Shown in pieces: positions 29,445-46,821 of a stretch of 64,000 nt of DNA. A model generated the notes under the pieces. The model was not told the origin of the DNA. It saw only the letters and a list, made by a program, of their open reading frames with translations, and made no database searches. Position 1 is the stretch's first letter. Each line of letters starts with the position of its first letter. The DNA is from Bacteroidota bacterium (lineage in GTDB: Bacteria > Bacteroidota > Bacteroidia > Bacteroidales > FEN-979): positions 1,598-65,597 of the forward strand of contig JAPLDI010000033.1 in assembly GCA_026391795.1 (NCBI GenBank), read 5' to 3'. Made by a program: the position numbers and the translations under genes.

Positions 29445-29504
29445 ATAATGTAACTAATTCACAAAGTTGTGTAACGGTTCTCCCTCCGAAGTGATAGAAC
29501 TTTG
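29437..29504 (+). promoter_or_regulatory. Composite GTAAC-type promoter (a), upstream of the cupin gene
   Basis: Distal box ACATGTGAATAATGTAAC 29437-29454. Proximal GTAAC 29471-29475 (16-nt spacer). TTTG 29501-29504 (25-nt spacer). Confidence 0.7.
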
Positions 29505-29619: not shown

Positions 29620-29958
29620 ATGGATTCAACCGAAATTGATAAAGCAAAGGCGCTGATAATTGTGGAGATCATCGAGTATGTTCCAAATTCGGTGGTCATT
29701 AAAACAGTTATGAAAAAAACAACGGGTAATGTCTGTGCCAAATCTTTTGATGCAGGTGAAGCCCTGACGGAAAAAATTATCCCTTTTGATACCTTCGTCC
29801 AGATCATCGATGGGAAGGCTGAGATTGTAATTGACGGAACCCCGAATTTCCTGGAAACAGGTCAGTCGATCATTATCCCTGCCCACACGGCAAATATTGT
29901 GAGAGCCAACCAGCGCTTCAAAATGATTTCAACCATCATTAAAAGCGGGTATGAATAA
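29620..29958 (+). CDS. Cupin-domain protein
   Basis: About 112 aa with ...FDTFVQIIDGKAEIVIDG..ETGQSIIIPAHTAN..RA, a cupin beta-barrel pattern. ATG chosen downstream of promoter (a). Confidence 0.6.
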   Translation: MDSTEIDKAKALIIVEIIEYVPNSVVIKTVMKKTTGNVCAKSFDAGEALTEKIIPFDTFVQIIDGKAEIVIDGTPNFLETGQSIIIPAHTANIVRANQRFKMISTIIKSGYE

Positions 29959-29980
29959 ACAGGAGTACCTGACTGGCAGA

Positions 29981-30068
29981 ATGTGGGAATGATGTAACTT
30001 AAATAAATTGTTTTGTAACTCAAACCGCCCTGTTGATTCTCACCTTTGTAGCGTGGAAATTCTTTCAC
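29981..30068 (+). promoter_or_regulatory. Composite GTAAC-type promoter (b), upstream of the coiled-coil lipoprotein
   Basis: ATGTGGGAATGATGTAAC 29981-29998. GTAAC 30015-30019. TTTG 30045-30048. Palindrome GTGGA-N6-TTCAC 30053-30068. Confidence 0.75.
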
Positions 30069-30086: not shown

Positions 30087-30536
30087 ATGAGAAAAACAAT
30101 TTTTTCAATTGCTGCAGCAGCGGTTATCGCAGCAACGATTCTGACAGCCTGCCAATCTTCTGAGAAAAAGGTTGAGGAAGCACAGGCCAATGTTCAGGAA
30201 GCAAATGCCAATGTGGCAAAGGCGAACCAGCAACTTGATCAGGCAATTAAAGATTCCATTCAGCAATTCAGAAAAGAATCGGAAGCAAGAATCATCGAAA
30301 ATGAAAAAAGCATTGCTGAATTCAGAGCCAAAATAGCCAGGGAAAATAAGGAAACAAGGGCAAGAAACGAACAGAGACTGGCTGAATTGGAGCAGCACAA
30401 CAGGGATTTGAGAAAGCAGCTGGAAGAATTCAGGGAAGACAGTAAAGACAACTGGGTTGCCTTCAGGGTTAAATTCAAAAACGACATGGACAACCTGGGA
30501 CACGCGTTTAAAAACTTCTGGGTGAAAGGTAAATAA
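30087..30536 (+). CDS. Coiled-coil lipoprotein (LEA/apolipoprotein-like, K/E/Q-rich)
   Basis: MRKTIFSIAAAAVIAATILTAC lipobox, then a low-complexity helical E/K/Q/A-rich sequence. Confidence 0.6.
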   Translation: MRKTIFSIAAAAVIAATILTACQSSEKKVEEAQANVQEANANVAKANQQLDQAIKDSIQQFRKESEARIIENEKSIAEFRAKIARENKETRARNEQRLAELEQHNRDLRKQLEEFREDSKDNWVAFRVKFKNDMDNLGHAFKNFWVKGK

Positions 30537-31034: not shown

Positions 31035-32144
31035 ATGATAAGTAAAGAAATACAAATTCCGTTTTACGCCAGGGTGACAATTCTGATCTTTGGAATCTCT
31101 GCTTTCATCATGATATTGTATATCGCGCGGGAGATTATTGTTCCCCTTGTCTTTGCGACTCTCCTGGCCATCGTTCTCCACCCGGTCGTTAATTTTTTTA
31201 CCCGGAGAAAAATAAGCAGGGTATTTGCAATCATCATCACTTTATTACTGACCATCCTGGTCATTGTTGCCCTGGGTGCATTCCTGGTGTCACAGGCGAT
31301 CCGGTTCAGTGAAACATGGCCGGTTTTGGTCGACAGGTTTACCGGGATCCTCAATGAGACCATTACCTGGATTTCCGGTTATTTTGATATAAAACCCCAA
31401 AAGATCCATGAATGGATCCTGAATACCAAAAGCGAGCTGATCAGCACCAGCTCTGCTGCGATCGGGCGAACACTTCTTACACTCGGGAACGGACTGGTAA
31501 TCCTGTTTTTAATTCCGGTATACATCTTCATGATCTTGTTTTATCATCCCCTTCTGATTGAGTTCATCCGGAGGCTTTTCAGAGAAGAACATCAAGGTAA
31601 AGTGGGTGAAATGATTTCCAAGACGAAAAGCGTGATCCAGCGTTACCTCGTCGGACTGGCCATAGAAGCTGTTCTTGTGGCAATCATGAATTCGGCCGGA
31701 CTTTTGATACTTGGGATCGACTACGCCATCTTACTGGGTATTCTAGGGGCCTTCCTTAATGTCATTCCCTACATAGGGGGAATTGTGGCTGTGGCGTTGC
31801 CCATGATGATCGCCATTGCAACAAAAGAGTCGGCCTGGTATGCTGTTTATGTCCTGGCTGTCTATTATTTCATTCAGCTCATCGACAATAACTTTATTGT
31901 TCCCAAAATTGTTGCTTCAAAAGTAAAGATCAACGCGCTGTTCTCCATCATCGTTGTCCTTGCCGGAAATGCCTTATGGGGCATCCCCGGCATGTTTCTT
32001 TCCTTGCCCCTTCTGGCCATTGTAAAGCTTATCTGCGACAATATCGAACCGCTAAAACCCTGGGGATTTTTATTGGGCGACACCATGCCATCCCTGTTGA
32101 GTATTGAACCGATCCTTAAGAAAGTAAAAAAGAAAGTGACATGA
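31035..32144 (+). CDS. AI-2E family transporter (PerM/UPF0118)
   Basis: About 8 TM helices. GILGAFLNVIPYIGGIVAVALPMMIAI and FIVPKIV motifs are typical of the family. Confidence 0.7.
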   Translation: MISKEIQIPFYARVTILIFGISAFIMILYIAREIIVPLVFATLLAIVLHPVVNFFTRRKISRVFAIIITLLLTILVIVALGAFLVSQAIRFSETWPVLVDRFTGILNETITWISGYFDIKPQKIHEWILNTKSELISTSSAAIGRTLLTLGNGLVILFLIPVYIFMILFYHPLLIEFIRRLFREEHQGKVGEMISKTKSVIQRYLVGLAIEAVLVAIMNSAGLLILGIDYAILLGILGAFLNVIPYIGGIVAVALPMMIAIATKESAWYAVYVLAVYYFIQLIDNNFIVPKIVASKVKINALFSIIVVLAGNALWGIPGMFLSLPLLAIVKLICDNIEPLKPWGFLLGDTMPSLLSIEPILKKVKKKVT

Positions 32145-33184
32145 TAGAGGTAAAAAAAGAAGGAATTATTCTCAGTAAGACTGACCTGGAATTTGAAAAT
32201 GAAGGGGTGCTTAATCCTGCCATTTTGCGAGAGGGCGACAACGTTCATGTTTTTTACCGTGCGGTGCGGAACGGGAATCATTCAACCATCGGCTATTGCA
32301 GGCTGGATGGTCCGCTTACTGTGGCGGAACGATGGGACCAGCCTTTCATCGTCCCTGAATTTGAATATGAATCACAGGGGGTGGAAGATGCGAGGATTGT
32401 TAAGATCGATGATCTCTTTTACATGACCTACACGGGGTACGACGGAACCAATGCACGCGGGGCCCTGGCGGTTTCAAATGATCTGAAGAGTTTTAAAAAG
32501 CTGGGAGTCATTGTCCCTCCCATCACGTATGCGCAATTTGTTTTCATGGCTGAATCTGCAGCCAAGGTAAATGAAAACTATTACCATAACCATAAGTTTT
32601 ATTACCAGGAATCCGATCCCGAAAAAAAGATCATGCTGTGGGATAAAAATGTAATCTTCTTTCCCCGCAGGATCAACGGAAACCTGGTGTTTCTGCACAG
32701 GATAAGGCCGGGAATACAGATCGTTTCTGTAAACTCGATCAAAGACCTGACCCCGGATTTCTGGGAAAAGTACTTTCTCAACTTGCAGGACCATATCGTC
32801 ATGGATCCCTTGCATGCGCATGAAGCAAACTACATCGGAAGCGGATGCCCTCCGATCGAGACAGAACATGGCTGGGTGTTGATCTATCATGGTGTGAGGG
32901 ATTCAAAAAAAGGGCTTATTTATTCAGCATGCGCTGCCCTTCTGGACCTTGAGGACCCCTCAAAGGAACTGGCACGGCTTCCTTACGCATTGTTTTCGCC
33001 GGAATATGATTGGGAAATAAGGGGAGAGGTGAACAATGTTGTTTTTCCGACCGGAACTGCCCTGTTCGGAAACACGCTCTTCATTTATTACGGAGCGGCG
33101 GATAGTCACATCGCCTGTGCCTCCGTCTCTTTTCAGACGTTAGTGGCAGAATTGCTTACCTATACAAAAAGTGATGCAAAATAG
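32141..33184 (+). CDS. GH130-like glycosidase/phosphorylase (PH1107-related)
   Basis: GVLNPA..REGD..HVFYRAV, GVEDARIVKIDDLFYMTYTGYDG, IYYGAAD: five-bladed propeller GH130-like pattern. 4-nt overlap with the upstream gene. Confidence 0.55.
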   Translation: MIEVKKEGIILSKTDLEFENEGVLNPAILREGDNVHVFYRAVRNGNHSTIGYCRLDGPLTVAERWDQPFIVPEFEYESQGVEDARIVKIDDLFYMTYTGYDGTNARGALAVSNDLKSFKKLGVIVPPITYAQFVFMAESAAKVNENYYHNHKFYYQESDPEKKIMLWDKNVIFFPRRINGNLVFLHRIRPGIQIVSVNSIKDLTPDFWEKYFLNLQDHIVMDPLHAHEANYIGSGCPPIETEHGWVLIYHGVRDSKKGLIYSACAALLDLEDPSKELARLPYALFSPEYDWEIRGEVNNVVFPTGTALFGNTLFIYYGAADSHIACASVSFQTLVAELLTYTKSDAK

Positions 33185-35516
33185 AATAGTTTCAACCCGG
33201 AATGATGAGAAAATCATTCTCTTTATTTCTTCCTATCCGCCGAGGGAATGCGGCATTGCGACCTATTCGCAGGATCTGATCAGGGCACTGAATAATAAAT
33301 TCAGCAGTTCCTTGACACTCCAGGTCTGTGCCCTTGAATCCAATGGTATAACCTATGATTATCCCGAAGAGGTAAGGTATACCCTGAAAACATCGATAGC
33401 CGGGGATTATGAGAAACTGGCGGAAAAGATAAACCAGGACAGGAACATTCAGATCGTTCTTATCCAGCATGAGTTTGGTTTCTTTCATAAGCAGGAGGAA
33501 GCCTTTCAGCAATTCCTGAACCTGCTTTCAAAGCCGGTTGTCATCGTCTTTCACACGGTACTGCCTCATCCTGATGAAAAATTAAAATCAAAAATTACTG
33601 CTATTGCGGCCTCCTGCGAATCGATCATCGTAATGACCCACAACTCGGCCGGGATCCTGACAACCGATTATGGGCTGCCCGGGAAAAAAATAACCATGAT
33701 CGCTCACGGAACTCACCTGGTTCCCCATCTGGGTAAGAAATTCCTGAAACAAAAGTATGGACTGAACGGAAAGAAAGTGCTTTCAACTTTCGGACTTCTC
33801 AGCTCCGGGAAGAGCATAGAGACCACCATTGATGCATTGCCTGCAATTGTCAGCAAGAACCCGGAGACCGTCTTTCTTATCCTGGGTAAAACGCATCCTG
33901 AAGTTGTGAAGTCGGAAGGAGAGCAATACAGGGAAATGCTGGAGCAAAAAGTAAGACAGTATGCACTTCAGGACCATGTACGATTTGTTAACGAGTATCT
34001 TGCCCTGCCCGATCTGCTTGAATACCTGCAGCTCACCGATATTTATCTGTTTACTTCCAGCGATCCGAACCAGGCAGTAAGCGGCACTTTTGTCTATGCA
34101 ATGAGCTGCGCCTGCCCGATCATCTCCACCCCGATTCCACATGCACGGGAACTGTTAACGGATGAGACAGGGATGATTATCGATTTCAGGAATTCCCAGC
34201 AGCTTGCAGCTGGCGTGATCCGATGGCTTAATGATGAACCGTTGCGAAGGAATATCAGCATAAATACCCTGCAAAAGATAGTTTCTTCAGCCTGGGAAAA
34301 CGCTGCCGTTGCGCATGCCATGCTGTTTGAATCAATTGCCGGCGATAATATTGCATTAACCTATAACCCGCCGGCTATCAACCTGGATCACATGAAACAT
34401 ATGACAACGGATGCCGGGATCATCCAGTTCTCAAAAATCAATCAGCCTGATATCTGTTCCGGGTACACGCTTGACGATAATGCCCGCGCACTGGTAGCAA
34501 TGTGCATGAATTATAAACTGACCGGGGATGAAGAAAACCTGGATTATATCCGTAGATATCTTGATTTCATCAGGCGTTGCCTCCAGCCTGACGGAACCTT
34601 TATTAATTATATAAATAAGGACAACGAGATTACTGCCCAGAATCAGACGGTGAACCTGGATGATGCCAACGGAAGGGCTGTATGGGCATTAGGGTACCTC
34701 GTATCCTTGTCCGTTGTTTTACCCGCTGAGATTGTCTCGGATGCGAAGACACTTCTTGACCAGTCCCTCCGCAGCATGAACCTCGTGCATTCCACACGGG
34801 CGATGGCATTTGCGATTAAAGGTCTCTATTACTACCAGAGCGTTGTAAGGTCGGATGAAGATTTCGCCCTTTTTGAAACCTTTGCAAACCGGCTGGTTCA
34901 GATGTACCGGCATGAATCGAACGAAACGTGGGCATGGTTTGAAGGTTATCTGACCTATGCCAACAGCATTCTGCCGGAGGCCATGCTGTACGCCTGGATG
35001 ATGACCGGAAACAAGGTTTATAAAGACATTGCTATATCCTCGCTGAATTTCCTGCTGTCGCAAACTTTTAACGAGAACGGCATCGAAGTGATTTCGAACA
35101 AAAACTGGCTTCAGAAGGGGGCAGTGCCAGGGCATTCCGGAGAACAACCCATCGATGTTGCCTATACGATCATGACATTGAGTAAGTTTTATGAAGTTTT
35201 TATGGATGAAGGCTATCGCGAAAAGATGGAAACCGCGTTTAACTGGTTTATGGGAAACAACCGCCTGCATCACATTATCTACAACCCCTGTACCGGCGGA
35301 TGTTATGACGGTCTGGAGGAGACCCATGTAAACCTCAACCAGGGGGCGGAGTCTACAGTCAGCTACCTGATGGCACGATTAACAATGGAAAAATACCTGG
35401 ACAGAGGCAACCCGGTAAGGACTCACTACAGAAAACGTGTCGCACTAACTGCGTTGCAAAGAAAACCGGTTTTTGCATCCGGAGAGAAACTCCTGACAGA
35501 CAGCCTGCTCTCATGA
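33171..35516 (+). CDS. GT4-type glycosyltransferase fused to a C-terminal alpha/alpha-barrel-like domain
   Basis: N-terminal GT-B pattern (ILFISSYPPRECGIATYSQDL...). The C-terminal ~380 aa are helical-repeat-like. Overlaps the GH130-like gene. Confidence 0.6.
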   Translation: MMQNRIVSTRNDEKIILFISSYPPRECGIATYSQDLIRALNNKFSSSLTLQVCALESNGITYDYPEEVRYTLKTSIAGDYEKLAEKINQDRNIQIVLIQHEFGFFHKQEEAFQQFLNLLSKPVVIVFHTVLPHPDEKLKSKITAIAASCESIIVMTHNSAGILTTDYGLPGKKITMIAHGTHLVPHLGKKFLKQKYGLNGKKVLSTFGLLSSGKSIETTIDALPAIVSKNPETVFLILGKTHPEVVKSEGEQYREMLEQKVRQYALQDHVRFVNEYLALPDLLEYLQLTDIYLFTSSDPNQAVSGTFVYAMSCACPIISTPIPHARELLTDETGMIIDFRNSQQLAAGVIRWLNDEPLRRNISINTLQKIVSSAWENAAVAHAMLFESIAGDNIALTYNPPAINLDHMKHMTTDAGIIQFSKINQPDICSGYTLDDNARALVAMCMNYKLTGDEENLDYIRRYLDFIRRCLQPDGTFINYINKDNEITAQNQTVNLDDANGRAVWALGYLVSLSVVLPAEIVSDAKTLLDQSLRSMNLVHSTRAMAFAIKGLYYYQSVVRSDEDFALFETFANRLVQMYRHESNETWAWFEGYLTYANSILPEAMLYAWMMTGNKVYKDIAISSLNFLLSQTFNENGIEVISNKNWLQKGAVPGHSGEQPIDVAYTIMTLSKFYEVFMDEGYREKMETAFNWFMGNNRLHHIIYNPCTGGCYDGLEETHVNLNQGAESTVSYLMARLTMEKYLDRGNPVRTHYRKRVALTALQRKPVFASGEKLLTDSLLS

Positions 35517-35559
35517 ATCTAAAATGCCGGAAAACAGGGGTTGGCACCGAAGCCGGGAA

Positions 35560-35627
35560 ATGTGTGAATTATGTAAGTTATTCGGGAAATTATGTAACGT
35601 TCAAAATCCCAAAGCCTCTCAATTTTG
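35560..35627 (+). promoter_or_regulatory. Composite GTAAC-type promoter (c), upstream of the AraC-HK-RR-PAS operon
   Basis: ATGTGTGAATTATGTAAG 35560-35577. GTAAC 35594-35598. TTTG 35624-35627. Same 16/25-nt spacers. Confidence 0.7.
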
Positions 35628-35677
35628 CAACATGAATTGACTGCCATTCAAAGGTGGCCTGATAAAGAAGTGACTGT

Positions 35678-36277
35678 TTGAAGCTATACATCAAATACAT
35701 GGTAAGTAACCGCTGTAAAATGGCGGTAAAAGAAGAGCTTAAAAAGCTTGGATTGCATTTCATCATTGTCGATCTGGGTGAGGTTGAGATCATGGAAAAT
35801 ATTTCCGCAGGGCAGCGGGAAAGCTTGTCAGTTGCACTGCACAGTTCAGGACTTGAACTGATGGACGACAAGCGGGCGATCCTGATTGAAAGAATAAAAA
35901 ATGCGGTTATTGAGATGGTTCATCATACGGACGACCTGATCAAGGTGAATTTTTCCGATTTTTTAAGTGAGAAACTAAAATATGATTATACATACCTGGC
36001 TAACTTATTCTCAGAAGTGCAGGGAACGACCATCGAGCATTTCATCATATCCCATAAAATTGAACGGATTAAGGAATTGATCATTTACGATGAATTGAAC
36101 ATAACCGAAATAGCCTGGAAATTAAATTACAGCAGTGTGGCACATTTATCCAATCAGTTTAAAAAGGTAACAGGGCTTTCACCGTCGCATTTTAAACAGT
36201 TGAAAAACAAGAGGAGAAGCCCGATTGAAGAAGTCGGGAATTCTGATCATGGAGATCACGCAATCTCATCAAATTAA
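35678..36277 (+). CDS. Small AraC-family regulator with an HMA-like N-terminal domain (paralog of 28884-29444)
   Basis: TTG start. MKLYIKYMVSNRCKMAVKEELKKLG... then AraC HTH ITEIAWKLNYSSVAHLSNQFKKVTGLSPSHF. Preceded by composite promoter (c). Confidence 0.8.
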   Translation: MKLYIKYMVSNRCKMAVKEELKKLGLHFIIVDLGEVEIMENISAGQRESLSVALHSSGLELMDDKRAILIERIKNAVIEMVHHTDDLIKVNFSDFLSEKLKYDYTYLANLFSEVQGTTIEHFIISHKIERIKELIIYDELNITEIAWKLNYSSVAHLSNQFKKVTGLSPSHFKQLKNKRRSPIEEVGNSDHGDHAISSN

Positions 36278-36288
36278 GAATTCAGAAC

Positions 36289-38616
36289 ATGGCGATTAAG
36301 ATTAACACCGATGAGTTAGACCTTGCACGCCTCGAACTTGCCCGGCGGATGGTTGAGAATGAAAGCCTGGCTGCTGAATTGGCCGTTGTACGAAAAGAAC
36401 TTGCCTTTCAGAAAGAAGAAAAAGGAAAACGGGCCAAAGAGTTAGGTATTGCAAACATTGAACTTGCCTACCAGGATGAAGAGAAAGGAAAACGTGCAGC
36501 AGAGCTGGGCATCGCTAACATTGAACTTGCTTTCCAGGATGAAGAGAAAGGAAAGCGCGCGGCAGAATTGATCATTGCCAACAAGGAACTCGCATTTCAG
36601 AACGATGAAAAAGAGAAACGGGCAGCCGAATTAAGGATTGCCAATTATGCACGGAGTATTATTGAAGCAAGCCGTGATCCTTTATTTACCATCAGCCCTG
36701 CCGGGAAAATTACCGATATGAACGATGCCTCCGTAAACATAACGGGAATTTCACGCAAAAACCTTACGGGAACCGACTTCTTTGATTATTTCACCGACCC
36801 GCAGAAAGCACGTGAGGTTTACAAAGAAGTATTTGCAAAAGGATTTGTGGCCGATTATCCTCTGACGATTAAAGACCATAAACTGACCGATGTACTGTTA
36901 AATGGCTCGGTCTATAAAGATGACAGGGGAGATGTACTGGGTGTGGTTGTGGTGGCAAGGGATATTACCGACCAGAAAAGGATTGAAACGGAATTGACGG
37001 AGGCCATCGTATTTGCCGAGCTGGCAACTTCCATTGCCGAAGATGCAAAAATCAAAGCGGAAGATGCCACCCGGATCGCAGAAAATGCAGTGAAAGCCAA
37101 ACAGCAGTTCCTGTCAAACATGAGTCACGAGATCCGCACGCCGATGAATGCACTCATCGGGTTTACAAAAGTGCTGCTGAAAACCGATGTGACATCAAAG
37201 CAAAAGGAGTACCTCACCGCCATAAAAATGAGCGGGGATGCCCTGATCGTCCTGATCAACGACATCCTCGACCTGGCAAAAGTGGATGCAGGGAAAATGG
37301 TTTTTGAACAGATACCCTTCACCATGGCGCTATCCATATCGGCGATGCTTCATTTATTCGAAACAAAAATCCAGGAAAAGAATTTAAAGCTGGTTATTGA
37401 TTACGACAGCAAGATTCCTAAAGTATTGATTGGTGATCCGGTACGTTTGCACCAGATCATCCTGAATCTTGTGAGCAATGCCGTTAAATTCACCACAAAG
37501 GGAATAATTACGGTCAGAGTCACTTTGATAAATGAAGACGAAGAGAAAGCAACTGTGGAATTTGCAGTGTCTGACACCGGAATCGGTATCCCGGAGAGTA
37601 AAATGGGAACTATTTTTGAAAACTTTCAGCAGGCTACCAGCGGAACTTCACGGTTGTACGGGGGAACCGGTTTGGGACTGGCCATCGTAAAACAACTGGT
37701 CGAGCCGCAAGGAGGAACCATTCACGTGGAAAGTAAAGTTGACGAGGGCTCCACGTTCAGCTTTGTACTGAGTTTCCTTAAAACAAATGAGGAAGCTGAA
37801 CCCGAGGCTGAGATTGTTGAACTGGACAAGAAAATTAAGAACATAAAAGTACTGGTTGTCGAAGACATCCCGCTCAACCAGCTGCTCATGAAAACGTTGC
37901 TGGATGATTTCGGATTTGAACGTGATATTGCTGCAAACGGGAAGATTGCCATCGAAAAGTTAAAATCCAGGTCGTTCGATATCATTTTAATGGACCTGCA
38001 GATGCCTGAAATGAACGGTTTTGAAGCAACCGAATACATCCGCAACACAATGAATTCAAAAATACCCATCATTGCACTGACCGCTGATGTAACCACCGTT
38101 GACCTGGCAAAATGCAAAGCCGTAGGGATGAATGATTACATCGCAAAACCAGTTGATGAGCGGTTGTTATACAGTAAGATCGTTGGCCTGGTTAAGAAGC
38201 CCCTTCCTGAAAAATTCATGGAGCAGCAGAGTGAAGGAACCGTTGATGTAAAGAAGTCAAGGTGCACTGATTTGGATTACCTGGTCCACCGCACAAGATC
38301 CAACCCCGGATTGATGATGGAGATGATTTCGCTCTACCTGGAACAGACCCCGGCACTGATCACCACCATGAAGAAAAGTTTTCAGGAAAAGGATTGGCAT
38401 ACATTGCATACAGCAGTCCATAAGATGATTCCGTCGTTTTCAATAATGGGTATTAATGCCGATTACGAGAATATGGCAAAGAAGGTTCAGGAGTTTGCAA
38501 CTACCCAGCAACAGGCCGATGGAATTTCCGACCTGGTTTTACAGCTTGAGATCATTTGCGGGCAGGCATGCAGTGAACTGGAAGTGGAGTTTAACAGGAT
38601 TAAAAGGGAGAACTGA
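36289..38616 (+). CDS. Hybrid sensor histidine kinase (coiled-coil repeats, PAS, HisKA, HATPase, REC, HPt)
   Basis: H-box SHEIRTPMNALIGF, N-box LVSNAVKFT, DTGIGI, GGTGLGLAIV. REC: VLVVEDIPLNQ...ILMDLQMPEMNG. HPt-like: HKMIPSFSIMG. Confidence 0.9.
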   Translation: MAIKINTDELDLARLELARRMVENESLAAELAVVRKELAFQKEEKGKRAKELGIANIELAYQDEEKGKRAAELGIANIELAFQDEEKGKRAAELIIANKELAFQNDEKEKRAAELRIANYARSIIEASRDPLFTISPAGKITDMNDASVNITGISRKNLTGTDFFDYFTDPQKAREVYKEVFAKGFVADYPLTIKDHKLTDVLLNGSVYKDDRGDVLGVVVVARDITDQKRIETELTEAIVFAELATSIAEDAKIKAEDATRIAENAVKAKQQFLSNMSHEIRTPMNALIGFTKVLLKTDVTSKQKEYLTAIKMSGDALIVLINDILDLAKVDAGKMVFEQIPFTMALSISAMLHLFETKIQEKNLKLVIDYDSKIPKVLIGDPVRLHQIILNLVSNAVKFTTKGIITVRVTLINEDEEKATVEFAVSDTGIGIPESKMGTIFENFQQATSGTSRLYGGTGLGLAIVKQLVEPQGGTIHVESKVDEGSTFSFVLSFLKTNEEAEPEAEIVELDKKIKNIKVLVVEDIPLNQLLMKTLLDDFGFERDIAANGKIAIEKLKSRSFDIILMDLQMPEMNGFEATEYIRNTMNSKIPIIALTADVTTVDLAKCKAVGMNDYIAKPVDERLLYSKIVGLVKKPLPEKFMEQQSEGTVDVKKSRCTDLDYLVHRTRSNPGLMMEMISLYLEQTPALITTMKKSFQEKDWHTLHTAVHKMIPSFSIMGINADYENMAKKVQEFATTQQQADGISDLVLQLEIICGQACSELEVEFNRIKREN
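36397..36648 (+). repeat. Coding tandem repeat, 4 x 63 nt (21 aa: ELAFQ.EEKGKRAAEL.IAN.) in the hybrid HK N-terminus
   Basis: ELAFQKEEKGKRAKELGIANI / ELAYQDEEKGKRAAELGIANI / ELAFQDEEKGKRAAELIIANK / ELAFQNDEKEKRAAELRIANY. Confidence 0.85.
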
Positions 38617-39047
38617 TGAACAACGAAAAAATCAGGCTTTTCCTGGTGGATGATGATGCCTTGTTTTTAAAGTCATTGGAGATTGAGTTTCTTCAGCATG
38701 CTGATTTTACGATTGAAACATTTGCCACCGGAGAGCTTTGTATAGAAAATCTGTCTCACACGCCGGATGTCATCATTCTGGATTACCTTCTTGACGATGT
38801 TGATAAAAATGCCATGAACGGAATAGAAACACTGGATAAAATCAAGGCCTTCAATCCGGATATCCCGGTAGTGATGTTATCCGCACAGGATAAAATTGAC
38901 GTGGCAATCAGCTGCATGCATCACCGTGCTTTCGATTATGTTGTAAAGAGTGAAACCGCATTTTTCAGGTTGCAAAAAATCATCTCAACCATCTTTCTTT
39001 ACCAGAAGATGGAGAAGGAATTAACCTGGTATATGGAGAAGATGTGA
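38616..39047 (+). CDS. Single-domain response regulator (CheY-like receiver)
   Basis: FLVDDDALFLKSLE...VIILDYLLDD...VVMLSAQD. The start overlaps the HK stop (TGATG). No output domain. Confidence 0.85.
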   Translation: MNNEKIRLFLVDDDALFLKSLEIEFLQHADFTIETFATGELCIENLSHTPDVIILDYLLDDVDKNAMNGIETLDKIKAFNPDIPVVMLSAQDKIDVAISCMHHRAFDYVVKSETAFFRLQKIISTIFLYQKMEKELTWYMEKM

Positions 39048-39081
39048 TCAGATATATTATCTTGCAAAAAAAAAACGGACC

Positions 39082-39633
39082 ATGAACGGTGAAGAAACAT
39101 ATCCCACGGAAGCGCAATTGTTGAGGATGAAAGCCGAAGAGGAACTTAAAAACTTCCATCCGGAACCTATGAAGCTGTTAAAGGGTGCAGATGAGAAACG
39201 GCTTTTGCATGAATTGCAGGTCTACCAGGTTGAACTGGAAATGCAGAACGAAGAGTTGCGCCAGTCGAATGCAACAGCAGAAGCAGCACTCCGGAAATAC
39301 ACCATGCTTTACGACTTTTCACCGATGGGTTATATTTCGCTTGAAAGTGATGGAACGATCAGCGACCTGAATTTTACAGCTGCTGAAATGCTTGGGGATA
39401 AGCACTTCAACTTTGCCGGCAGAAACTTTAAAGTTTTCATCTCTGAGAATTCACTGCCTGTCTTTACTGATTTTTTCAGTAAGATTTTTTCCCATGAAGG
39501 TAAAGAATCCTGTGAAGTGATGCTGAGTCATGACGGTCATCCCTTATGCAAGGTTTTTATGGAAGGTGTTGTAATTGGCGATGAACGGAAATGCCTTTTA
39601 TCGGTAATTGATCTCTCTGACTTCAGGAAGTAA
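39082..39633 (+). CDS. PAS-domain protein with an N-terminal coiled-coil leader
   Basis: LHELQVYQVELEMQNEELRQSN followed by the PAS core LYDFSPMGYISLESDGTISDLNFTAAEMLG. Confidence 0.75.
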   Translation: MNGEETYPTEAQLLRMKAEEELKNFHPEPMKLLKGADEKRLLHELQVYQVELEMQNEELRQSNATAEAALRKYTMLYDFSPMGYISLESDGTISDLNFTAAEMLGDKHFNFAGRNFKVFISENSLPVFTDFFSKIFSHEGKESCEVMLSHDGHPLCKVFMEGVVIGDERKCLLSVIDLSDFRK

Positions 39634-39722
39634 ATCACTTCCCGGCCTGCTTCTTTTCCCGCATTTTTCTGATCCGATGCTTTCTTTCCTTCAGCCCATA
39701 TCCAGGTGAACCGTTACTGGAA

Positions 39723-39813
39723 ATGTGGGAATTATATAACTTTTTTTCGAAATTCCGTAACACGGTTCGGGACAGGTTTTCCGATCTTTGGGTTGCTGTG
39801 AAAATTCATTCAT
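39723..39813 (+). promoter_or_regulatory. Composite GTAAC-type promoter (d), upstream of the haem-binding protein
   Basis: ATGTGGGAATTATATAAC 39723-39740. GTAAC 39757-39761. TTTG 39787-39790. GTGAA-N6-TTCAT 39798-39813. Confidence 0.7.
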
Positions 39814-40228: not shown

Positions 40229-40353
40229 AAGAGCCTCTGAAACAGTGAATATCCTCCTGGTTTTGGTTCATACGATAGAGGATGCGGGGGATATTCAGTT
40301 TGTTGGGGTACTGCCCTGTTTTCATTTCAGGGAAGGTTCCCCTTCTTTCTGTT

Positions 40354-40421
40354 TTGTGTGAATAATGTAAGAATTTACTGAAAATGTGTAACGCTTTCCG
40401 GATTGGGAGGAGTGAACTTTG
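40354..40421 (+). promoter_or_regulatory. Composite GTAAC-type promoter (e), upstream of the FNR-like reductase (possibly a long operon through mgtA)
   Basis: TTGTGTGAATAATGTAAG 40354-40371. GTAAC 40388-40392. TTTG 40418-40421. Confidence 0.7.
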
Positions 40422-40463: not shown

Positions 40464-41135
40464 GTGGAGAAACATCTTGTAAAAATAGAATCAATACAGT
40501 TCATCACGCATGACGTGTTGCAGATCGAAACAGAAAAACCCCGGCACTACAGCTTCAACCCCGGGCAGGCTACTGAAATTTCGATCAACAAAGACGGCTG
40601 GCTGAACGAACGGCGGCCTTTTACATTCACATGCCTTCCGTTGAATGATTTTCTTCAGTTTACCATTAAAACCTATCCTGAGCATAAAGGTGTAACGAAT
40701 GAACTTCGGAAACTCAAGAAAAATGACACCTTGATTGTACATGAGGTCTTCGGGGCAATCGCCTACAGGGAGGAGGGGCTTTTCATTGCCGGAGGGGCCG
40801 GAATCACGCCTTTTATCTGCATCTTCAGGGATCTCAGGTTCCGGGATAAGATCGGGCATAACAAACTCATTTTCGCCAACAAGACGAAGGATGATATCAT
40901 TCTGATGGATGAACTCAAACACCTGCTGGGGGAAAATTTTATCAATATTTTATCGGAAGAAAAGAAAACAGGATTTCTGCACGGGTTTATCACCCGGGAA
41001 ATCCTGAAGGCAAATCTGCCCGGCAGGAAGAAAAATATCTATGTGTGCGGCCCTCCGCCGATGATGGATGCCGTTACCGAACTGCTGGCCATCCTGAAAG
41101 TTGATGAAAAATTAATTATCCAGGAAGCTGTTTAA
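40464..41135 (+). CDS. FNR-like flavin reductase (FAD/NAD(P)-binding oxidoreductase)
   Basis: GTG start. RPFTFTC (FAD-binding), GGAGITPF (NAD-binding), YVCGPPPMM. Confidence 0.75.
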   Translation: MEKHLVKIESIQFITHDVLQIETEKPRHYSFNPGQATEISINKDGWLNERRPFTFTCLPLNDFLQFTIKTYPEHKGVTNELRKLKKNDTLIVHEVFGAIAYREEGLFIAGGAGITPFICIFRDLRFRDKIGHNKLIFANKTKDDIILMDELKHLLGENFINILSEEKKTGFLHGFITREILKANLPGRKKNIYVCGPPPMMDAVTELLAILKVDEKLIIQEAV

Positions 41136-41152: not shown

Positions 41153-41341
41153 ATGCATGTTAAGCTGAATGAACTTGTAGCATCACACGAACCTGCAAAA
41201 AATTCAGTCATCAATGTGGAAGGAAAAACGGAACACGAAATCACGGTGCTGTCGAAAGAATATGAAGAACTGGCGACAATCGCTAAAGAGAAAGAAGAAA
41301 TATTATTGAATACTATTGAGAAGGAGAATGAAAAAACTTGA
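41153..41341 (+). CDS. Small ORF resembling the C-terminal tail of low-affinity iron permease family proteins (possible remnant)
   Basis: HVKLNELVASHEPAKNSVINVEGKTEHEITVLSKEYEEL resembles my recollection of the KLDELI...N.L..IE.L.E.EL tail. Overlaps the next CDS start. Confidence 0.3.
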   Translation: MHVKLNELVASHEPAKNSVINVEGKTEHEITVLSKEYEELATIAKEKEEILLNTIEKENEKT

Positions 41342-42089
41342 AAATAAAACTGTTTTTATAACCGGCGGATTGTCGGGTATTGGCAAAGCCTGTGCATTTG
41401 CAGCTGCAAGAGAGGGAGCGAATGTAGTAATTGCAGACTTAAAATCGGAAATTTCAGCGGATACAATCTCTGAGATAAGGCTGGATAACCCCCGGGCCGT
41501 TTTTATTGAATGTGACGTTTCGGACTTTGCCCAGGTCGGGGAGGCTGTCAGGAAAGTGGTAAGCACTTTTAAAACACTCGATGTTGCATTGAACAATGCA
41601 GGTATCGGGGGAACCGCAAGTAAAGTGGGCGATATGAGTGAAGAAGCCTGGCTGAGCGTGATCGGTGTCAACCTGAATGGCATTTTTTATTGTATGAAAC
41701 ATGAACTGACACAGATGTCGAAACAGAAGAGTGGAGTCATCGTCAACATGTCATCCATCTTAGGTAAAGTAGGATTTGCAACTTCAGCACATTACGTTGC
41801 GTCAAAGCACGGCATCCTCGGTCTTACCCAGACAGCAGCCCTTGAATATGCCGGTGAAGGTATCCGGATTAATGCCCTCTGCCCGGGCTTTATTGAGACT
41901 CCGTTACTAACCCACGCGGGCATTGGAAAAGGTACGGACCTTCAAAACTACATTATAGGCCTGCATCCCTTAAAACGGTTGGGGAAACCGGAAGAAATTG
42001 CATCCGGGTTTATTTTTCTTGCATCGGACGACAGTACATTTATCACGGGAACAGCACTTGAAATGGATGGCGGGTATTTATCCCAATAA
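41328..42089 (+). CDS. SDR-family oxidoreductase
   Basis: TGGLSGIGKA (TGxxxGxG), NNAG, catalytic YVASKHG, PGFIETP. Confidence 0.9.
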   Translation: MKKLENKTVFITGGLSGIGKACAFAAAREGANVVIADLKSEISADTISEIRLDNPRAVFIECDVSDFAQVGEAVRKVVSTFKTLDVALNNAGIGGTASKVGDMSEEAWLSVIGVNLNGIFYCMKHELTQMSKQKSGVIVNMSSILGKVGFATSAHYVASKHGILGLTQTAALEYAGEGIRINALCPGFIETPLLTHAGIGKGTDLQNYIIGLHPLKRLGKPEEIASGFIFLASDDSTFITGTALEMDGGYLSQ

Positions 42090-42176
42090 AAACTTGTTAT
42101 GGTTTAATCATTACAGTAAATAATTAAGATAGGAACCCGGTTAATAGAGCTGGCCCTATCGTTAAATACCTTCAGG

Positions 42177-43052
42177 ATGTTTGTAGACTATTATAAAATA
42201 CTGGGAATAGACAAAAAGGCAACGCCGAAGGATATCAAAGCTGCCTACCGGAAACTTGCAAGGAAACATCATCCGGATTTGCACCCGAATGACAAGGAGG
42301 CGAAGAAAAATTTTCAGCAGATCAATGAAGCCAATGAGGTGCTGAGTGATCCTGAGAAACGGATGAAATATGATCAGTACGGAGAGGACTGGAAGCATGC
42401 CGGGGATTTTGAAAATGCGAAACAGCAGCAACGTTCATCTCCCCGCGGTTCAAGGTATTCATCGGCACAACCGGAAAGTGACTTTTCCGACTTTTTCGAA
42501 TCCATGTTCGGGGGATCTGGCCGGAGCGGCAGGACCAGCCAGGTAAGATACCGGGGCGAAGATTACAACGCCGAACTGAACCTCGACCTCCACGATGCCT
42601 GCAAAACCCATAAGCAAACGTTGACGGTAAACGGAAAAAATATCCGGATCACGATCCCTGCCGGAATTGAAAACGGGCAGACGATCAAAATTCCGGGTCA
42701 TGGAGGCCCGGGAACAAACGGCGGCCCGGATGGCGATTTGTACATCACTTTTTCCGTTGCCAACCTTCCCGGGATCAGGCGCCTGGGAGATAATCTCTAT
42801 GCCACCGTGGATCTGGACCTTTACACCGCTGTCCTGGGTGGTGAGATCACAGTGGACACGCTGAACGGGAAAGTCAAACTGAAAGTCAAACCCGAAACCC
42901 AGAACGGAAGCAAAGTCAAACTGAAAGGAAAGGGTTTCCCGGCATACAAAACTGAAACGTTCGGAGATTTTTACATAACCTATTCTGTGAAAATCCCGAC
43001 AAACCTGACAGAAAAACAAAAGACACTCTTTACCGAGTTATCCCAATCCTGA
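42177..43052 (+). CDS. cbpA: Curved-DNA-binding DnaJ-like co-chaperone CbpA
   Basis: J-domain DYYKILGI...HHPDLHP (HPD). DnaJ C-terminal domains but no Zn-finger CxxCxGxG repeats. Confidence 0.85.
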   Translation: MFVDYYKILGIDKKATPKDIKAAYRKLARKHHPDLHPNDKEAKKNFQQINEANEVLSDPEKRMKYDQYGEDWKHAGDFENAKQQQRSSPRGSRYSSAQPESDFSDFFESMFGGSGRSGRTSQVRYRGEDYNAELNLDLHDACKTHKQTLTVNGKNIRITIPAGIENGQTIKIPGHGGPGTNGGPDGDLYITFSVANLPGIRRLGDNLYATVDLDLYTAVLGGEITVDTLNGKVKLKVKPETQNGSKVKLKGKGFPAYKTETFGDFYITYSVKIPTNLTEKQKTLFTELSQS

Positions 43053-43070
43053 TTTTAAAAATGATGAGCC

Positions 43071-43370
43071 ATGCAAACCGAATATTTAATTGCTGTTGAT
43101 GAGTTCTGCACCCTCAACAACGTTGATGTTTCCTTCATCAGTTCATTGAAGCAAACCGGGTTGATCGAAGTTACCACGATAAAAGAAGCCGGGTTTATCG
43201 ATGCCGGTCAGCTTCAGCAACTGGAGAAATTCATCCGGTTCTATTACGAGCTGGATATCAACCTGGAAGGGATCGAAACCATAACACACCTGCTCCGGAG
43301 GATCAACAACCTGCAGGAAGAAGTCAGGGGGCTGAAGAACAGGCTGCGCCTTTATGAAGTCTATGATTGA
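43071..43370 (+). CDS. cbpM: Chaperone modulator CbpM (MerR-like)
   Basis: 99 aa immediately downstream of cbpA. FISSLKQTGLIEV... and INLEGIETITHLLRRI fit the typical pattern. Confidence 0.7.
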   Translation: MQTEYLIAVDEFCTLNNVDVSFISSLKQTGLIEVTTIKEAGFIDAGQLQQLEKFIRFYYELDINLEGIETITHLLRRINNLQEEVRGLKNRLRLYEVYD

Positions 43371-43454
43371 AGTTTATGATTACGCAAGGTGATCTTTAGA
43401 AATCCCCCGATGTTTGTCCTGTAAAAATTCCTACATTTACGCAAACACCTGACC

Positions 43455-45977
43455 ATGGACCAGATCCCACCGTCTTTTTGGAGTGCCGCTCCTGCGGAAC
43501 TATTTGACAGGCTAAAAGCAACAGCCAGCGGATTGACAGGCAAAGAGGCCAAAAACAGGTTAATCAGCTATGGAGCAAACCGCCTGAAACCTAAAAAAAG
43601 CTCCGGCACATTCACACTTCTTGTTTCCCAGTTTAAAAGCCCGATCATACTGATTCTCTTATTTGCGACGGGCTTGTCGTTGTTTCTGCATAACCTCGTC
43701 GATGCTTCCATCATTCTTGTCATTGTCGTCATCAGCGGACTTCTTGGTTTCTGGCAGGAGCACGGGGCATCCAACGCGGTGGCCAGGTTGCTTGCCATCG
43801 TGCAGATAAAAGCAGCCGTGCTTCGCGACGGGCAGCAAAATGAAATTCCTGTGGAAGAGATTGTCCCCGGCGACATCGTGATCCTGAATGCCGGTGATAT
43901 CATTCCCGGCGATTGCCTGCTGATCGAATCAAAGGATTTATTTGTTGATGAAGCAATGCTCACCGGCGAAACCTTCCCGGTCGAAAAAGCAGTTTCAGTC
44001 TTACCTGCCGATACTCCTCTTGCACAGCGAACAAACACAGTCTGGATGGGCACGCATGTTGTGAGTGGAAATGCAAAGGCATTCGTCGTACTGACAGGTA
44101 AAAACACGGAATTCGGCAAGGTATCAGAACGACTTAAACTGAAACCACCGGAGACTGATTTTGAACGTGGTATCCGTCGATTCGGTTATTTTCTCGGGGA
44201 GGTAACGCTGGTTTTGGTTGTCATCATCTTTGCCATCAATGTTTACCTGCACCGTCCGGTACTGGAATCATTTCTTTTTTCACTGGCGCTTGCAGTCGGT
44301 TTGACCCCGCAGTTATTACCAGCCATCATCAGCATCAACCTTGCACATGGCGCCAAGAAGATGGCTGAAAAGAAGGTGATTGTAAAACGCCTTGCTTCCA
44401 TCGAAAATTTCGGCAGCATGAATGTGATTTGCTCCGATAAAACCGGCACACTTACGGAAGGAACTGTGACCGTGGAATCCGCGCTGGATGTGAGCGGAAA
44501 CTCCAATGAGAAAGTTTTTCTGTTCGCCTATCTCAATGCTTTTTACGAAACCGGCTTTACAAACCCCATCGATGAAGCCATCCTGAACCATCGTAAGTTG
44601 GATTTGGCTGACTACCAGAAACAGGATGAGATCCCCTATGATTTCCTTCGTAAACGGTTAACCATTGCAGTCAAACATGGCGATGCACATTTCATGGTGA
44701 CCAAGGGTGCGCTGAAGAATATACTCGAGGTATGTTCATCGGCAGAAACCAGTGAGGGAAATATCACGGATATCGACTCCTTAAGCGATCAGATCCAGAA
44801 ACACTTTGAGGGATTCAGCAACCAGGGATTCCGGACCCTGGGCATTGCTTATAAAAATATACCCCGGGAAACACTCATTAGCAAAACAGATGAGGCGGGG
44901 ATGACTTTCATTGGATTTCTTACCCTCTTCGACCCCCCGAAGCCGAATATTGTGGAAACGATAGCCAGTTTGAAAAAACTGGGTGTTTCACTAAAGATCA
45001 TTACCGGCGACAATCATCTGGTCGCCGCCAGCCTGAGTAAAAAGATGGGACTGTCGGATAATAAAATCATTGCAGGTCCTGAACTTCGCCAGATGAGCGA
45101 TGGCGCCTTGCTCCGCCAGGTGGGTACGGTGGACGTTTTGGCTGAAATAGAACCCAATCAGAAGGAACGGATCATCATCGCCCTGCGGAAGGCAGGGAAC
45201 GTTGTAGGCTATATGGGCGATGGCATCAATGATGCCTCCGCCCTTCATGCAGCAGATGTTGGGATCTCAGTGGATACAGCTGCAGATGTTGCCAAGGATG
45301 CAGCAGATATCGTACTGCTCGAAAAGGATCTCGGTGTGCTGATCCAGGGTGTTCGTGAAGGCCGAACGACCTTTGCCAACACCCTGAAGTATGTATTTAT
45401 GGCCACAAGTGCAAATTTCGGGAATATGTTCAGCATGGCGGGAATATCCCTGTTCATCCCCTTTCTTCCCTTGTTGCCCAAGCAGATCCTGCTTACGAAC
45501 CTGATGACCGACTTCCCCGAAATGACCATTGCAACGGACAGGGTGGATGAGGAAATGGTTAACTACCCCCGTCGGTGGGACATCAAAGCCATCCGCAAGT
45601 TCATGATCACCTTCGGCCTTGTAAGTTCGGTATTTGATTACCTGACCTTTGGTCTGCTTTTGTTAATCCTTCGTGCTAATGAGAGCCAGTTCAGGACCGG
45701 ATGGTTCCTTGAATCGGTGATCTCAGCATCCCTGATTGTACTTGTGATCCGAAGCAGGAAGCCGTTTTTCAGGAGCAAACCCGGTAAATATCTGTTAATT
45801 GCAACACTTTCAATTGCCATCCTGACACTGATATTTCCGTTCACCCCGCTGGGAACTGTTTTTGGTTTCAGCCCTCTTCGATTTTCCACCTATCTATTTC
45901 TATTGGTGATCGTGGCCCTTTACATATTCGCTGCAGAAATTACCAAACGGATCTTTTACAGGAAGGTCAGATTTTAG
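43455..45977 (+). CDS. mgtA: Mg2+-importing P-type ATPase
   Basis: TGE (MLTGETFPVEK), CSDKTGTLT, MGDGINDA, about 10 TM helices. MgtA-like N-terminus and length. Confidence 0.85.
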   Translation: MDQIPPSFWSAAPAELFDRLKATASGLTGKEAKNRLISYGANRLKPKKSSGTFTLLVSQFKSPIILILLFATGLSLFLHNLVDASIILVIVVISGLLGFWQEHGASNAVARLLAIVQIKAAVLRDGQQNEIPVEEIVPGDIVILNAGDIIPGDCLLIESKDLFVDEAMLTGETFPVEKAVSVLPADTPLAQRTNTVWMGTHVVSGNAKAFVVLTGKNTEFGKVSERLKLKPPETDFERGIRRFGYFLGEVTLVLVVIIFAINVYLHRPVLESFLFSLALAVGLTPQLLPAIISINLAHGAKKMAEKKVIVKRLASIENFGSMNVICSDKTGTLTEGTVTVESALDVSGNSNEKVFLFAYLNAFYETGFTNPIDEAILNHRKLDLADYQKQDEIPYDFLRKRLTIAVKHGDAHFMVTKGALKNILEVCSSAETSEGNITDIDSLSDQIQKHFEGFSNQGFRTLGIAYKNIPRETLISKTDEAGMTFIGFLTLFDPPKPNIVETIASLKKLGVSLKIITGDNHLVAASLSKKMGLSDNKIIAGPELRQMSDGALLRQVGTVDVLAEIEPNQKERIIIALRKAGNVVGYMGDGINDASALHAADVGISVDTAADVAKDAADIVLLEKDLGVLIQGVREGRTTFANTLKYVFMATSANFGNMFSMAGISLFIPFLPLLPKQILLTNLMTDFPEMTIATDRVDEEMVNYPRRWDIKAIRKFMITFGLVSSVFDYLTFGLLLLILRANESQFRTGWFLESVISASLIVLVIRSRKPFFRSKPGKYLLIATLSIAILTLIFPFTPLGTVFGFSPLRFSTYLFLLVIVALYIFAAEITKRIFYRKVRF

Positions 45978-46071: not shown

Positions 46072-46075
46072 CTAA

Positions 46076-46143
46076 ATGTGTGAATGATGTAACTGTTTGC
46101 AATCTTTGTGTAACAATCTTCTTTCCCTCCCGCAATAACTTTA
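46076..46143 (+). promoter_or_regulatory. Composite GTAAC-type promoter (f), upstream of the small membrane protein
   Basis: ATGTGTGAATGATGTAAC 46076-46093. GTAAC 46110-46114. TTTA (variant of TTTG) 46140-46143. Confidence 0.65.
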
Positions 46144-46193: not shown

Positions 46194-46355
46194 ATGGCAA
46201 GGTTATTATTGATTATCGGGTTGATTCTCGTAGTTCTTTGGCTGTTGGGGTTATTTGCATTTCATGTGACCACACCGGTTTTTCACGCACTGATCATCAT
46301 CGGTGTCATCCTGATCATTCTCGATCTTGCAAACAGCCGCCGCAACTGGTGGTGA
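46194..46355 (+). CDS. lmo0937-like small membrane protein (53 aa)
   Basis: MARLLLIIGLILVVLWLLGLFAFHVTTPVFHALIIIGVILIILDLANSRRNWW: two TM helices and a basic tail. Start 54 nt downstream of promoter (f). Confidence 0.6.
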   Translation: MARLLLIIGLILVVLWLLGLFAFHVTTPVFHALIIIGVILIILDLANSRRNWW

Positions 46356-46747: not shown

Positions 46748-46821
46748 TATTCCCTGACTGCGCTCGTCTGTTTTTTATTTCAGATGACCTTTCCTTTCCT
46801 GATCAGAATCCCTTCTTTTTG

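Follow-up and report, generated by a model that had tools for sequence, protein, structure and literature searches.

In the response regulators YesN and AraT, and in the hybrid two-component systems of Bacteroides such as BT1754, a kinase signal reaches a receiver domain (REC) that controls an AraC-type DNA-binding domain with two helix-turn-helix (HTH) motifs. By analogy, the same flow of signal appears to be encoded at 35558–39047 of a 64,000-nucleotide stretch from a Bacteroidota bacterium (Bacteroidales, FEN-979; contig JAPLDI010000033.1, positions 1,598 to 65,597), hereafter called the window. This region probably encodes the core regulators of a stress regulon that spans the Bacteroidota, in which a split AraC-type response regulator would be fed by a four-step phosphorelay. 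In contrast to YesN, AraT and BT1754, the receiver is separate, the functions being spread over three genes instead of one polypeptide (fused HMA-AraC-REC relatives exist), and the DNA-binding domain comes after an additional HMA-fold domain and a linker helix. Since its parts are separate polypeptides, the module falls outside the hybrid two-component and YesN families. It also differs from the Bacteroides hybrid systems in having a soluble PAS hybrid kinase with an HPt segment instead of a periplasmic sugar sensor, and apparent stress-gene targets instead of polysaccharide-utilisation loci. No description of the module was found in the full-text literature, most subscription journals being outside its coverage.

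A preliminary description of this DNA had placed a composite promoter directly before a plus-strand cluster of four genes. The four open reading frames (ORFs), their domains and the promoter element were all located at the positions it gave:

35558–35601, plus strand: operator of the AraC operon, position weight matrix score 51.2; distal half TGTGTGAATTATGTAAG, proximal half AAATTATGTAAC, 21-bp-phased, with T at column 13
35620–35627, plus strand: −7 box of the AraC operon, CAATTTTG, at a fixed distance from the operator
35678–36277, plus strand: AraC1, 199 aa, TTG start codon; HMA-fold N-domain, linker helix and two-HTH AraC DNA-binding domain
36289–38616, plus strand: cytoplasmic hybrid histidine kinase, 775 aa; repeats, PAS, HisKA, HATPase, REC and an HPt-like domain
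38616–39047, plus strand: receiver-only response regulator, 143 aa, REC domain alone; its ATG overlaps the kinase stop codon (TGATG)
39082–39633, plus strand: stand-alone PAS protein, 183 aa; coiled coil and PAS domain

The architecture proposed earlier for the kinase held, the HPt domain being putative (below threshold in Pfam). Four exact copies of a 21-aa repeat (residues 30–113, nt 36376–36627) form a coiled coil and are followed by PAS (36652–36981), HisKA with H280 (37096–37293), HATPase (37432–37773) and REC with D569 (37849–38181), all of which passed the Pfam thresholds (E-values of 2.3e-19 for HisKA, 2.7e-29 for HATPase_c and 8.6e-27 for REC). The HPt-like domain (38317–38613; Pfam Hpt E = 0.0019, 18.8 bits, under the 24.6-bit threshold) contains H711 within HKMIPSFSIMG, and its alignment with the ArcB model reaches residue 753. 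The best NCBIfam matches of the kinase were BarA, TorS and ArcB. The ArcB, BarA, TorS and LuxQ phosphorelays consist of an H1-D1-H2 hybrid kinase followed by a separate D2 receiver, a layout that the present module would share, but here the kinase has no transmembrane region and carries N-terminal 21-aa coiled-coil repeats, and the terminal receiver is without an output domain. Among orthologs (L001–L080) the repeat occurred in 0–14 copies, and extra PAS domains were found instead in some. An exact-sequence search for contigs encoding the kinase gave no match. The receiver gene, whose overlap with the kinase stop codon had been noted before, indeed encodes a REC domain alone (Pfam Response_reg, E = 8.9e-18, residues 9–113 of 143), with no output domain. 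Its key residues are D12, D13, D56, S89 and K111, its C-terminal tail (...LTWYMEKM) is conserved, and its best matches in the PDB were the receiver domains of NtrC and DctD.

A link between this receiver and AraC1 was provided by fusion proteins. A search seeded with one fusion retrieved 47 clusters of HMA-AraC-REC proteins (315–344 aa, 58–85% identical to each other), which have many members and came from many samples and from contigs of up to 148 kb. The first impression had been that the AraC-REC fusion was a singleton artefact, which this dedicated search overturned; an AraC-kinase fusion (P0155), represented by a single partial record, was not relied on. The receiver half of the fusions is orthologous to the window receiver and was 55% identical to it over the full length including the tail (...LNWF...M). 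In two fusion loci, the gene directly upstream encodes a hybrid PAS kinase, and ice-binding genes follow downstream. These two loci also contain direct repeats, AATTATGAAAC-N10-AATTATATAAC, before a −7 box, an operator related to that of the window. By the Rosetta-stone argument, the fusions point to the receiver as a REC domain detached from an AraC-type response regulator, and we propose that it belongs to AraC1.

The preliminary description had likened the cluster to partner switching or anti-activation. In such a scheme, the unphosphorylated receiver would sequester AraC or an inhibitor and phosphorylation would free it. Single-domain receivers such as SdrG and MrrA act by protein–protein contacts in general stress systems, which offers a precedent, and the window receiver comprises only a REC domain and a conserved tail. 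However, Pfam and NCBIfam scans of the four operon products were negative for STAS and sigma-like domains, anti-sigma factors and PP2C phosphatases, and nothing of the kind was seen in the conserved neighbourhood. The covalent AraC-receiver fusion is likewise hard to square with an exchange of partners. This part of the earlier account was therefore not upheld, and we regard such logic as very improbable.

Conservation of the module was traced through more than 8000 scored AraC1 homologs, the best 120 of which were 79–90% identical, and through 80 genome loci from Prolixibacteraceae, Paludibacter, Odoribacter, many Flavobacterium species, Crocinitomicaceae, Chitinophagaceae, Saprospiraceae and Sphingobacteriaceae. 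AraC1 showed 80–87% amino-acid identity, yet its four-fold degenerate sites were only 15–42% identical. Synonymous sites are thus saturated, which points to an old divergence subject to very strong purifying selection; on this ground, recent horizontal transfer was rejected as an explanation of the ~80% identity across classes. Synteny was counted in the 65 genome loci with at least 5 kb downstream of AraC. Kinase and receiver genes followed AraC on the same strand in 62 of them, spanning Bacteroidia, Flavobacteriia, Chitinophagia, Sphingobacteriia and Saprospiria, and the kinase started within 2.5 kb in 59 of them. The exceptions were frameshifted kinases, one contig end and locus L064, which encodes AraC, a stand-alone HPt protein (a homolog of the kinase HPt segment) and the receiver. 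AraC, kinase and receiver are a conserved core module across the phylum Bacteroidota.

The synteny suggested earlier had included the PAS gene, and this part did not stand: a homolog was found near AraC in only 2 of the 80 genome loci (L023, L033). The PAS gene is an accessory and not a core component, and is probably co-transcribed with the AraC operon here. A promoter and terminator scan of the operon returned chance-level counts; it used a sigma-70 consensus that is not valid for Bacteroidota and was therefore uninformative. That the protein is a stand-alone PAS protein was borne out by its AlphaFold2 model, in which residues 83–177 matched HIF2a/ARNT PAS-B, FixL and DosP in Foldseek (TM ~0.8, E ~2e-5), despite a sub-threshold Pfam match (PAS_9, E = 0.0044). 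A sequence search of the PDB with this protein gave no match. The family has 2900 stand-alone homologs, and in four of four other genomes (L204–L207) the gene stands directly after a gene for a ~975-aa CheB-CheR-PAS fusion (PAS_10), in a similar stress-gene neighbourhood. Paralogs of this CheB-CheR-PAS_10 fusion also occur in or beside AraC-kinase-receiver clusters, and between AraC and kinase in L024 and L063 (further loci listed for the fusion or the PAS protein: L006, L007, L056, L069, L071, L072, L078, L033, L057 and L115); the window has no such fusion gene. As a speculation, the Gln/Glu-rich 21-aa kinase repeats (FQNEEKEKRA) and the helix ELEMQNEEL of the PAS protein could be methylation substrates.

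The DNA-binding domain of AraC1 was recognized by Pfam (HTH_18, E = 1.3e-16; HTH_AraC, E = 1.1e-8; both over the gathering score). In the AlphaFold2 model (pLDDT 82.8, 33 input sequences), residues 2–61 (nt 35678–35863) form a beta-alpha-beta-beta-alpha-beta N-domain, residues 64–83 (nt 35867–35926) a long linker helix and residues 92–179 (nt 35951–36214) the DNA-binding domain of seven helices. Foldseek matched the latter to AraT, AdpA, MarA and SoxS (E 2e-5 to 1e-3) and also to YesN; the closest structural matches, AraT and YesN, are themselves REC-AraC regulators. The N-domain matched the HMA proteins Atx1, TTHA1718 and GolB (4a47, 2roe, 2xmv, 4y2i; TM 0.61–0.70 over ~65 columns), which supports the earlier suggestion of an HMA-like domain that lacks CxxC and has a single-Cys loop (MVSNRC). 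Like the HMA domains of Atx1, CopZ and GolB, it has the beta-alpha-beta-beta-alpha-beta fold and keeps the conserved Met and the second Cys of GMxCxxC. It departs from them in the loop, which reads YMVSNRC without CxxC, and in its fusion to a transcription factor, and the Pfam profile search of the N-domain gave no HMA (PF00403) match. The sole Pfam match of the N-domain was STAS (E = 0.1), rejected as non-significant. M8, V9, R12 and C13 were listed as invariant; in 135 representative clusters, C13 and M8 were each conserved in 99% and R12 in 90%, while position 10, the first Cys of the HMA loop, was Ser in 82% and Cys, with the full CxxC kept, in 13%. For none of the four operon proteins did NCBIfam contain a specific family model.

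The Cys13 loop may serve as a second input (redox or metal) or as a docking surface. Such conservation, together with a fold backed by model and structural matches, could also be read to mean that AraC1 is controlled mainly through this domain, with oxidation of Cys13 or a bridging metal governing dimerisation and with kinase and receiver as cargo or a side branch. The 47 AraC-receiver fusion clusters and the near-universal synteny tie the receiver to AraC, however, and HMA and receiver inputs are compatible with each other. We consider control mainly by the HMA-like domain distinctly unlikely.

Three further observations concern this protein family. A TTG start lies at the equivalent position of AraC1 (MKLYIKYMV, 35678) and of a paralog in the window (MKIFIKYMV, 28884). 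Leu stood at the start position in ~15% of the family representatives, consistent with TTG starts elsewhere. One 1043-aa protein (P0124), with 10 stretches that match the AraC N-domain and only low-complexity Pfam matches, is probably repetitive or mistranslated and was disregarded.

The promoter element of the AraC operon (35558–35627) consists of TGTGTGAATTATGTAAG, 16 nt, GTAAC, 21 nt and then CAATTTTG. The pattern GAATNATGTAAS-N15-TGTAAS had 11 occurrences in the window, where 100 shuffles gave an expectation of 0.00, and the position weight matrix identified 12 sites, all at 29.4–63 kb. The operator consensus was aAAtGTGTGAATgATGTAAC-N15-TGTAAC, then ~24 nt, then AccTTTG. Bacteroides promoters have the Bacteroidota −7 box consensus TAnnTTTG, and TTTG or TTTA was present at the expected −7 position of 195 of 210 independent metagenome sites. 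In genome loci, 158 of 170 operators were oriented in the same direction as AraC. The AraC operon promoter has no −33 box, and the proximal repeat takes up approximately −41 to −36. If the transcription start site (TSS) is ~7 nt past the G of the −7 box, the TGTAAC boxes lie at ~−62 to −57 and ~−41 to −36 and the element at ~−73 to −36.

Two direct repeats 21 bp apart that end at approximately −36 are the classic class II layout of AraC/XylS activators. The described examples (AraC at araI1-araI2, RhaS, MelR, XylS) likewise have two direct-repeat half-sites spaced by one 21-bp period, a proximal half-site over the −35/−33 region and, in each half-site, two sub-boxes one helical turn apart. The sub-boxes of each operator unit in the window would be placed in the same way, as expected for a two-HTH monomer. 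The present system differs from these activators in the HMA-like module of ~62 aa that replaces the cupin or sugar-binding domain, in the apparent phosphorelay input and in the Bacteroidota −7 (TAnnTTTG) promoter.

An operator was found 75–90 nt upstream of AraC1 in 65 of 81 genes with the position weight matrix. A strict regular expression (GTAA[CGT] twice) had detected it before only 14 of 80 AraC genes, an artefact of its strictness. Since the operator before the AraC operon is conserved, autoregulation is plausible; the positive feedback claimed in the preliminary description stands to that extent, whereas its positive sign was not supported. As a converse approach, metagenome contigs were scanned for an exact 21-base motif without selection for AraC, which gave at least 120 loci (644 kb). 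Among the matches listed, the HMA-AraC family was the most recurrent gene family (26 of the 120 motif-selected loci). No second transcription-factor family recurred in the motif-selected loci listed, where, of the 25 top ORF clusters, only the AraC cluster itself aligned to the AraC family (these clusters were not scanned with Pfam). By association, the AraC family stands out clearly as the leading candidate to bind the 21-bp-phased repeats, in line with the earlier view that the AraC paralogs are their likeliest binders.

The 44-bp element might instead be read by an alternative sigma factor, another regulator or a different factor altogether, the nearby AraC genes being members of the regulon; the operator does precede other regulator genes, including those of a second receiver family and kinases. 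Yet the −7 box is of the housekeeping type, the repeats have the AraC/XylS arrangement and no other transcription-factor family was recurrent in the motif-selected loci. We give this explanation hardly any credence.

More weight has to be given to the paralog of AraC1 at the left of the operator-bearing part of the window:

28884–29444, plus strand: AraC2 paralog, TTG start; own −7 box at 28771–28778, no operator upstream

AraC2 was 63% identical to AraC1, and its stop codon lies within the operator at 29435–29478; the paralogy and the overlap had been described earlier. The same juxtaposition, with an operator that begins at the stop codon of an AraC2-type gene, was seen in at least 14 motif-selected loci. 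In these genes, the last codons and the stop form part of the distal operator half of the gene that follows (...ENM* = GAAAACATGTGAAT); this overlap of coding sequence and operator (29435–29444 in the window) occurs on many unrelated contigs (L104, L116, L125, L146, L155, L163, L168, L198, L109, L113, L141, L150 and others). Column 13 of the operator was T in 61 of the 65 operators before AraC1 (GAATTATG; window position 35570) and in 35 of the 170 other operators, which otherwise had G (86), A (28) or C (21). The proximal box of the AraC1 operators was often ATATAAC.

Several of these findings weigh against AraC1, with its kinase and receiver, as the core of the regulon. A recognisable upstream operator is missing from 16 of the 81 AraC1 genes, and the autoregulatory variant, with its column-13 T and weaker proximal box, is unlike the other operators. 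AraC2-type paralogs have no adjacent receiver and no upstream operator, yet adjoin the strongest operators. Lastly, the receiver of the fusions is C-terminal to the DNA-binding domain, unlike that of YesN and AraT, so the mechanism of control may differ from theirs.

The AraC2-type paralogs might therefore be the main activators. In a two-tier cascade of this kind, they would activate the stress promoters of the GAATGATG type, and AraC1 with kinase and receiver would act on T-variant sites only (its own promoter and a few more) or would modulate AraC2 through heterodimers or competition for sites. Besides the abutting stop codons and the bias at column 13, it would be consistent with the plain promoter and missing receiver of the AraC2-type genes, with the AraC genes of motif-selected loci being mostly AraC2-like (60–74% identical to AraC1), and with the boxes of the fusion lineage, AATTATGAAAC and AATTATATAAC. 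The recognition helices of AraC1 and AraC2 are, however, almost identical, so both would be expected to read the same boxes and a difference in specificity is not expected. AraC1 is also far more conserved and widespread than AraC2, and in many loci it is accompanied by GAATGATG sites without an AraC2 gene within 10 kb. We consider the cascade unlikely, and continue to favour the AraC1-kinase-receiver module as the probable core.

Beyond the operator of the AraC operon, the window contained the following sites:

29435–29478, plus strand: operator overlapping the AraC2 stop codon, before a cupin-like gene (29620–29958)
29979–30022, plus strand: operator before a coiled-coil lipoprotein gene (30087–30536)
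39721–39764, plus strand: operator variant GAATTATATAAC ... CCGTAAC, before a Pfam Haem_bd gene; marks the end of the AraC operon
40352–40395, plus strand: operator before an FAD/NAD-binding oxidoreductase gene (40464–41135)
46074–46117, plus strand: operator before a DUF5670 small membrane protein gene (46194–46355)
46820–46863, plus strand: operator before an ice-binding-like protein gene (46932–48551) with a T9SS sorting tail
48631–48674, plus strand: operator before a CsbD gene (48739–48927)
53499–53542, plus strand: operator before a DUF3943 gene (53683–55254)
58820–58863, minus strand: operator before a secreted Pro/Gln-rich protein gene (58758–57292)
62903–62946, minus strand: operator before a secreted protein gene (62840–62307)
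62988–63031, plus strand: weaker operator (score 29.7), divergent from 62903–62946; the downstream product clusters with a TPR-like family

To define the targets more widely, the first ORFs downstream of 329 operators (from the window, genome loci and metagenome loci) were clustered. The families below recurred, with the number of operators for each:

CsbD, the most frequent target family: 47 operators
ice-binding-like or Big-like secreted proteins: 25 operators
small secreted Glu/Lys-rich proteins: 20 operators
TPR proteins: 19 operators
DUF5670 small membrane proteins: 19 operators
receivers and kinases, including a second receiver-only family 33% identical to the operon receiver: 18 operators
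YtxH: 9 operators
MlaE-like proteins: 9 operators
coiled-coil lipoprotein: 8 operators
small cupin: 8 operators
YXWGXW-type proteins: 7 operators
YceI: 4 operators

Judged by gene content, this set resembles the general-stress regulons of sigma-B and EcfG. The Bacillus sigma-B system (RsbV/RsbW; RsbK-RsbY in B. cereus) and the alphaproteobacterial PhyR-NepR-EcfG system with SdrG/MrrA appear to control similar genes (CsbD, YtxH-like, small membrane or hydrophilic proteins, oxidoreductases), and these switches have a regulatory operon under its own control and receive their input from hybrid or PAS kinases and single-domain receivers, both of which are plausible here. They differ in relying on an alternative sigma factor, where the present module would be an activator acting with the housekeeping sigma factor; no anti-sigma or antagonist proteins are present here, and the stress role is read from gene content. 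Many of the host genomes belong to glacier or cold-water Flavobacterium species, and these cold-habitat hosts, together with the ice-binding genes, hint at cold, freezing or desiccation stress.

Taken as a mechanism, the favoured reading would run as follows. The cytoplasmic PAS hybrid kinase would autophosphorylate on H280, and the phosphoryl group would pass to D569 of its REC domain, to H711 of the HPt segment and on to D56 of the single-domain receiver. The receiver would dock on AraC1, at the HMA-like domain, the linker helix or the DNA-binding domain, and control how it dimerises or how it contacts DNA and RNA polymerase. Two AraC protomers would bind, one per 21-bp unit, each to an A-box (GTGTGAAT or aAaTT) and a B-box (TGTAAC), covering ~−73 to −36; AraC2 may join in operator binding, given its almost identical recognition helices. 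At a housekeeping-sigma promoter with a −7 box only, the proximal protomer would stand in for the missing −33 element, a class II-type activation. Predicted targets are the genes for CsbD, YtxH, DUF5670, ice-binding-like, cupin, oxidoreductase and envelope proteins, and, through the distinct operator variant, the module's own operon as a feedback.

Some motif promoters carry an additional inverted repeat, GTGAAAAT-N2-3-ATTCAC(A), 5–6 nt past the −7 box and around the expected TSS. It was found in 59 of 390 motif promoters (15%), against 0.35% of random windows, and many examples occur in L001–L200. In the window it lies at ~30045–30065, 46895–46915, 48700–48720, 39792–39812 and, on the minus strand, 62880–62860; the promoter of the AraC operon is without it. 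The repeat has GTGAAT in common with the distal operator half, and a symmetric change to GTGAG...CTCAC was seen in one lineage. One possibility is that a repressor binds there, at the TSS; another is that the repeat folds into a hairpin at the mRNA 5' end.

The second receiver-only family is operator-driven and often located directly upstream of AraC (~15 loci, including L004, L007, L017, L072 and L075), and is not encoded in the window; possible roles are a branch of the feedback or a sink for phosphate. The AraC operon is immediately preceded in the window (31035–35516) by genes for an AI-2E-family transporter-like protein, a GH130 protein and a GT4 glycosyltransferase of 781 aa whose C-terminal region is glycoside-hydrolase-like. 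The GH130-GT pair recurs beside AraC or the CheB-CheR/PAS pair in many loci (55–85% identity), and may make a compatible solute or glycan. Downstream of the oxidoreductase gene (~41316–43600; 3427–5469 in L201) are genes for an SDR protein, a DnaJ/DnaJ_C (CbpA-like) protein and a MerR_2 protein, of which the latter two resemble a chaperone with its modulator.

To our knowledge, no general stress regulator has been described for environmental Bacteroidota (Flavobacteriia, Chitinophagia, Sphingobacteriia, Marinilabiliales), and we know of no RpoS, sigma-B or EcfG in them. The full-text literature, whose coverage leaves out most subscription journals, yielded no such regulator either. A bolder and more tentative reading, to which we assign less likelihood than to its opposite, is that the module is this missing master regulator of the general stress response, possibly to cold, desiccation or stationary phase. 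It would act through the housekeeping sigma factor on promoters without a −33 element, by means of a split AraC regulator with a redox or metal input at Cys13 and kinases tuned by the CheB-CheR fusion enzymes. Within that reading, the fusion enzymes would methylate the variable 21-aa Gln/Glu-rich repeats of the kinases and, in the 183-aa PAS protein, the helix ELEMQNEEL. If true, a chemotaxis-style adaptation system would have been rewired for the control of transcription.

The module supplies concrete parts for the study of this regulation: one regulator family ~80% identical across classes, a 44-bp operator, and a cognate kinase and receiver. The operator predicts membership of the regulon from sequence alone, and is usable for the annotation of stress regulons in thousands of genomes and metagenome-assembled genomes as well as for an inducible promoter part. 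The split and fused forms are a natural pair of response regulators that may aid in studying how receivers control AraC-type domains, and the promoter layout suggests how an activator can substitute for the −33 element of Bacteroidota promoters.

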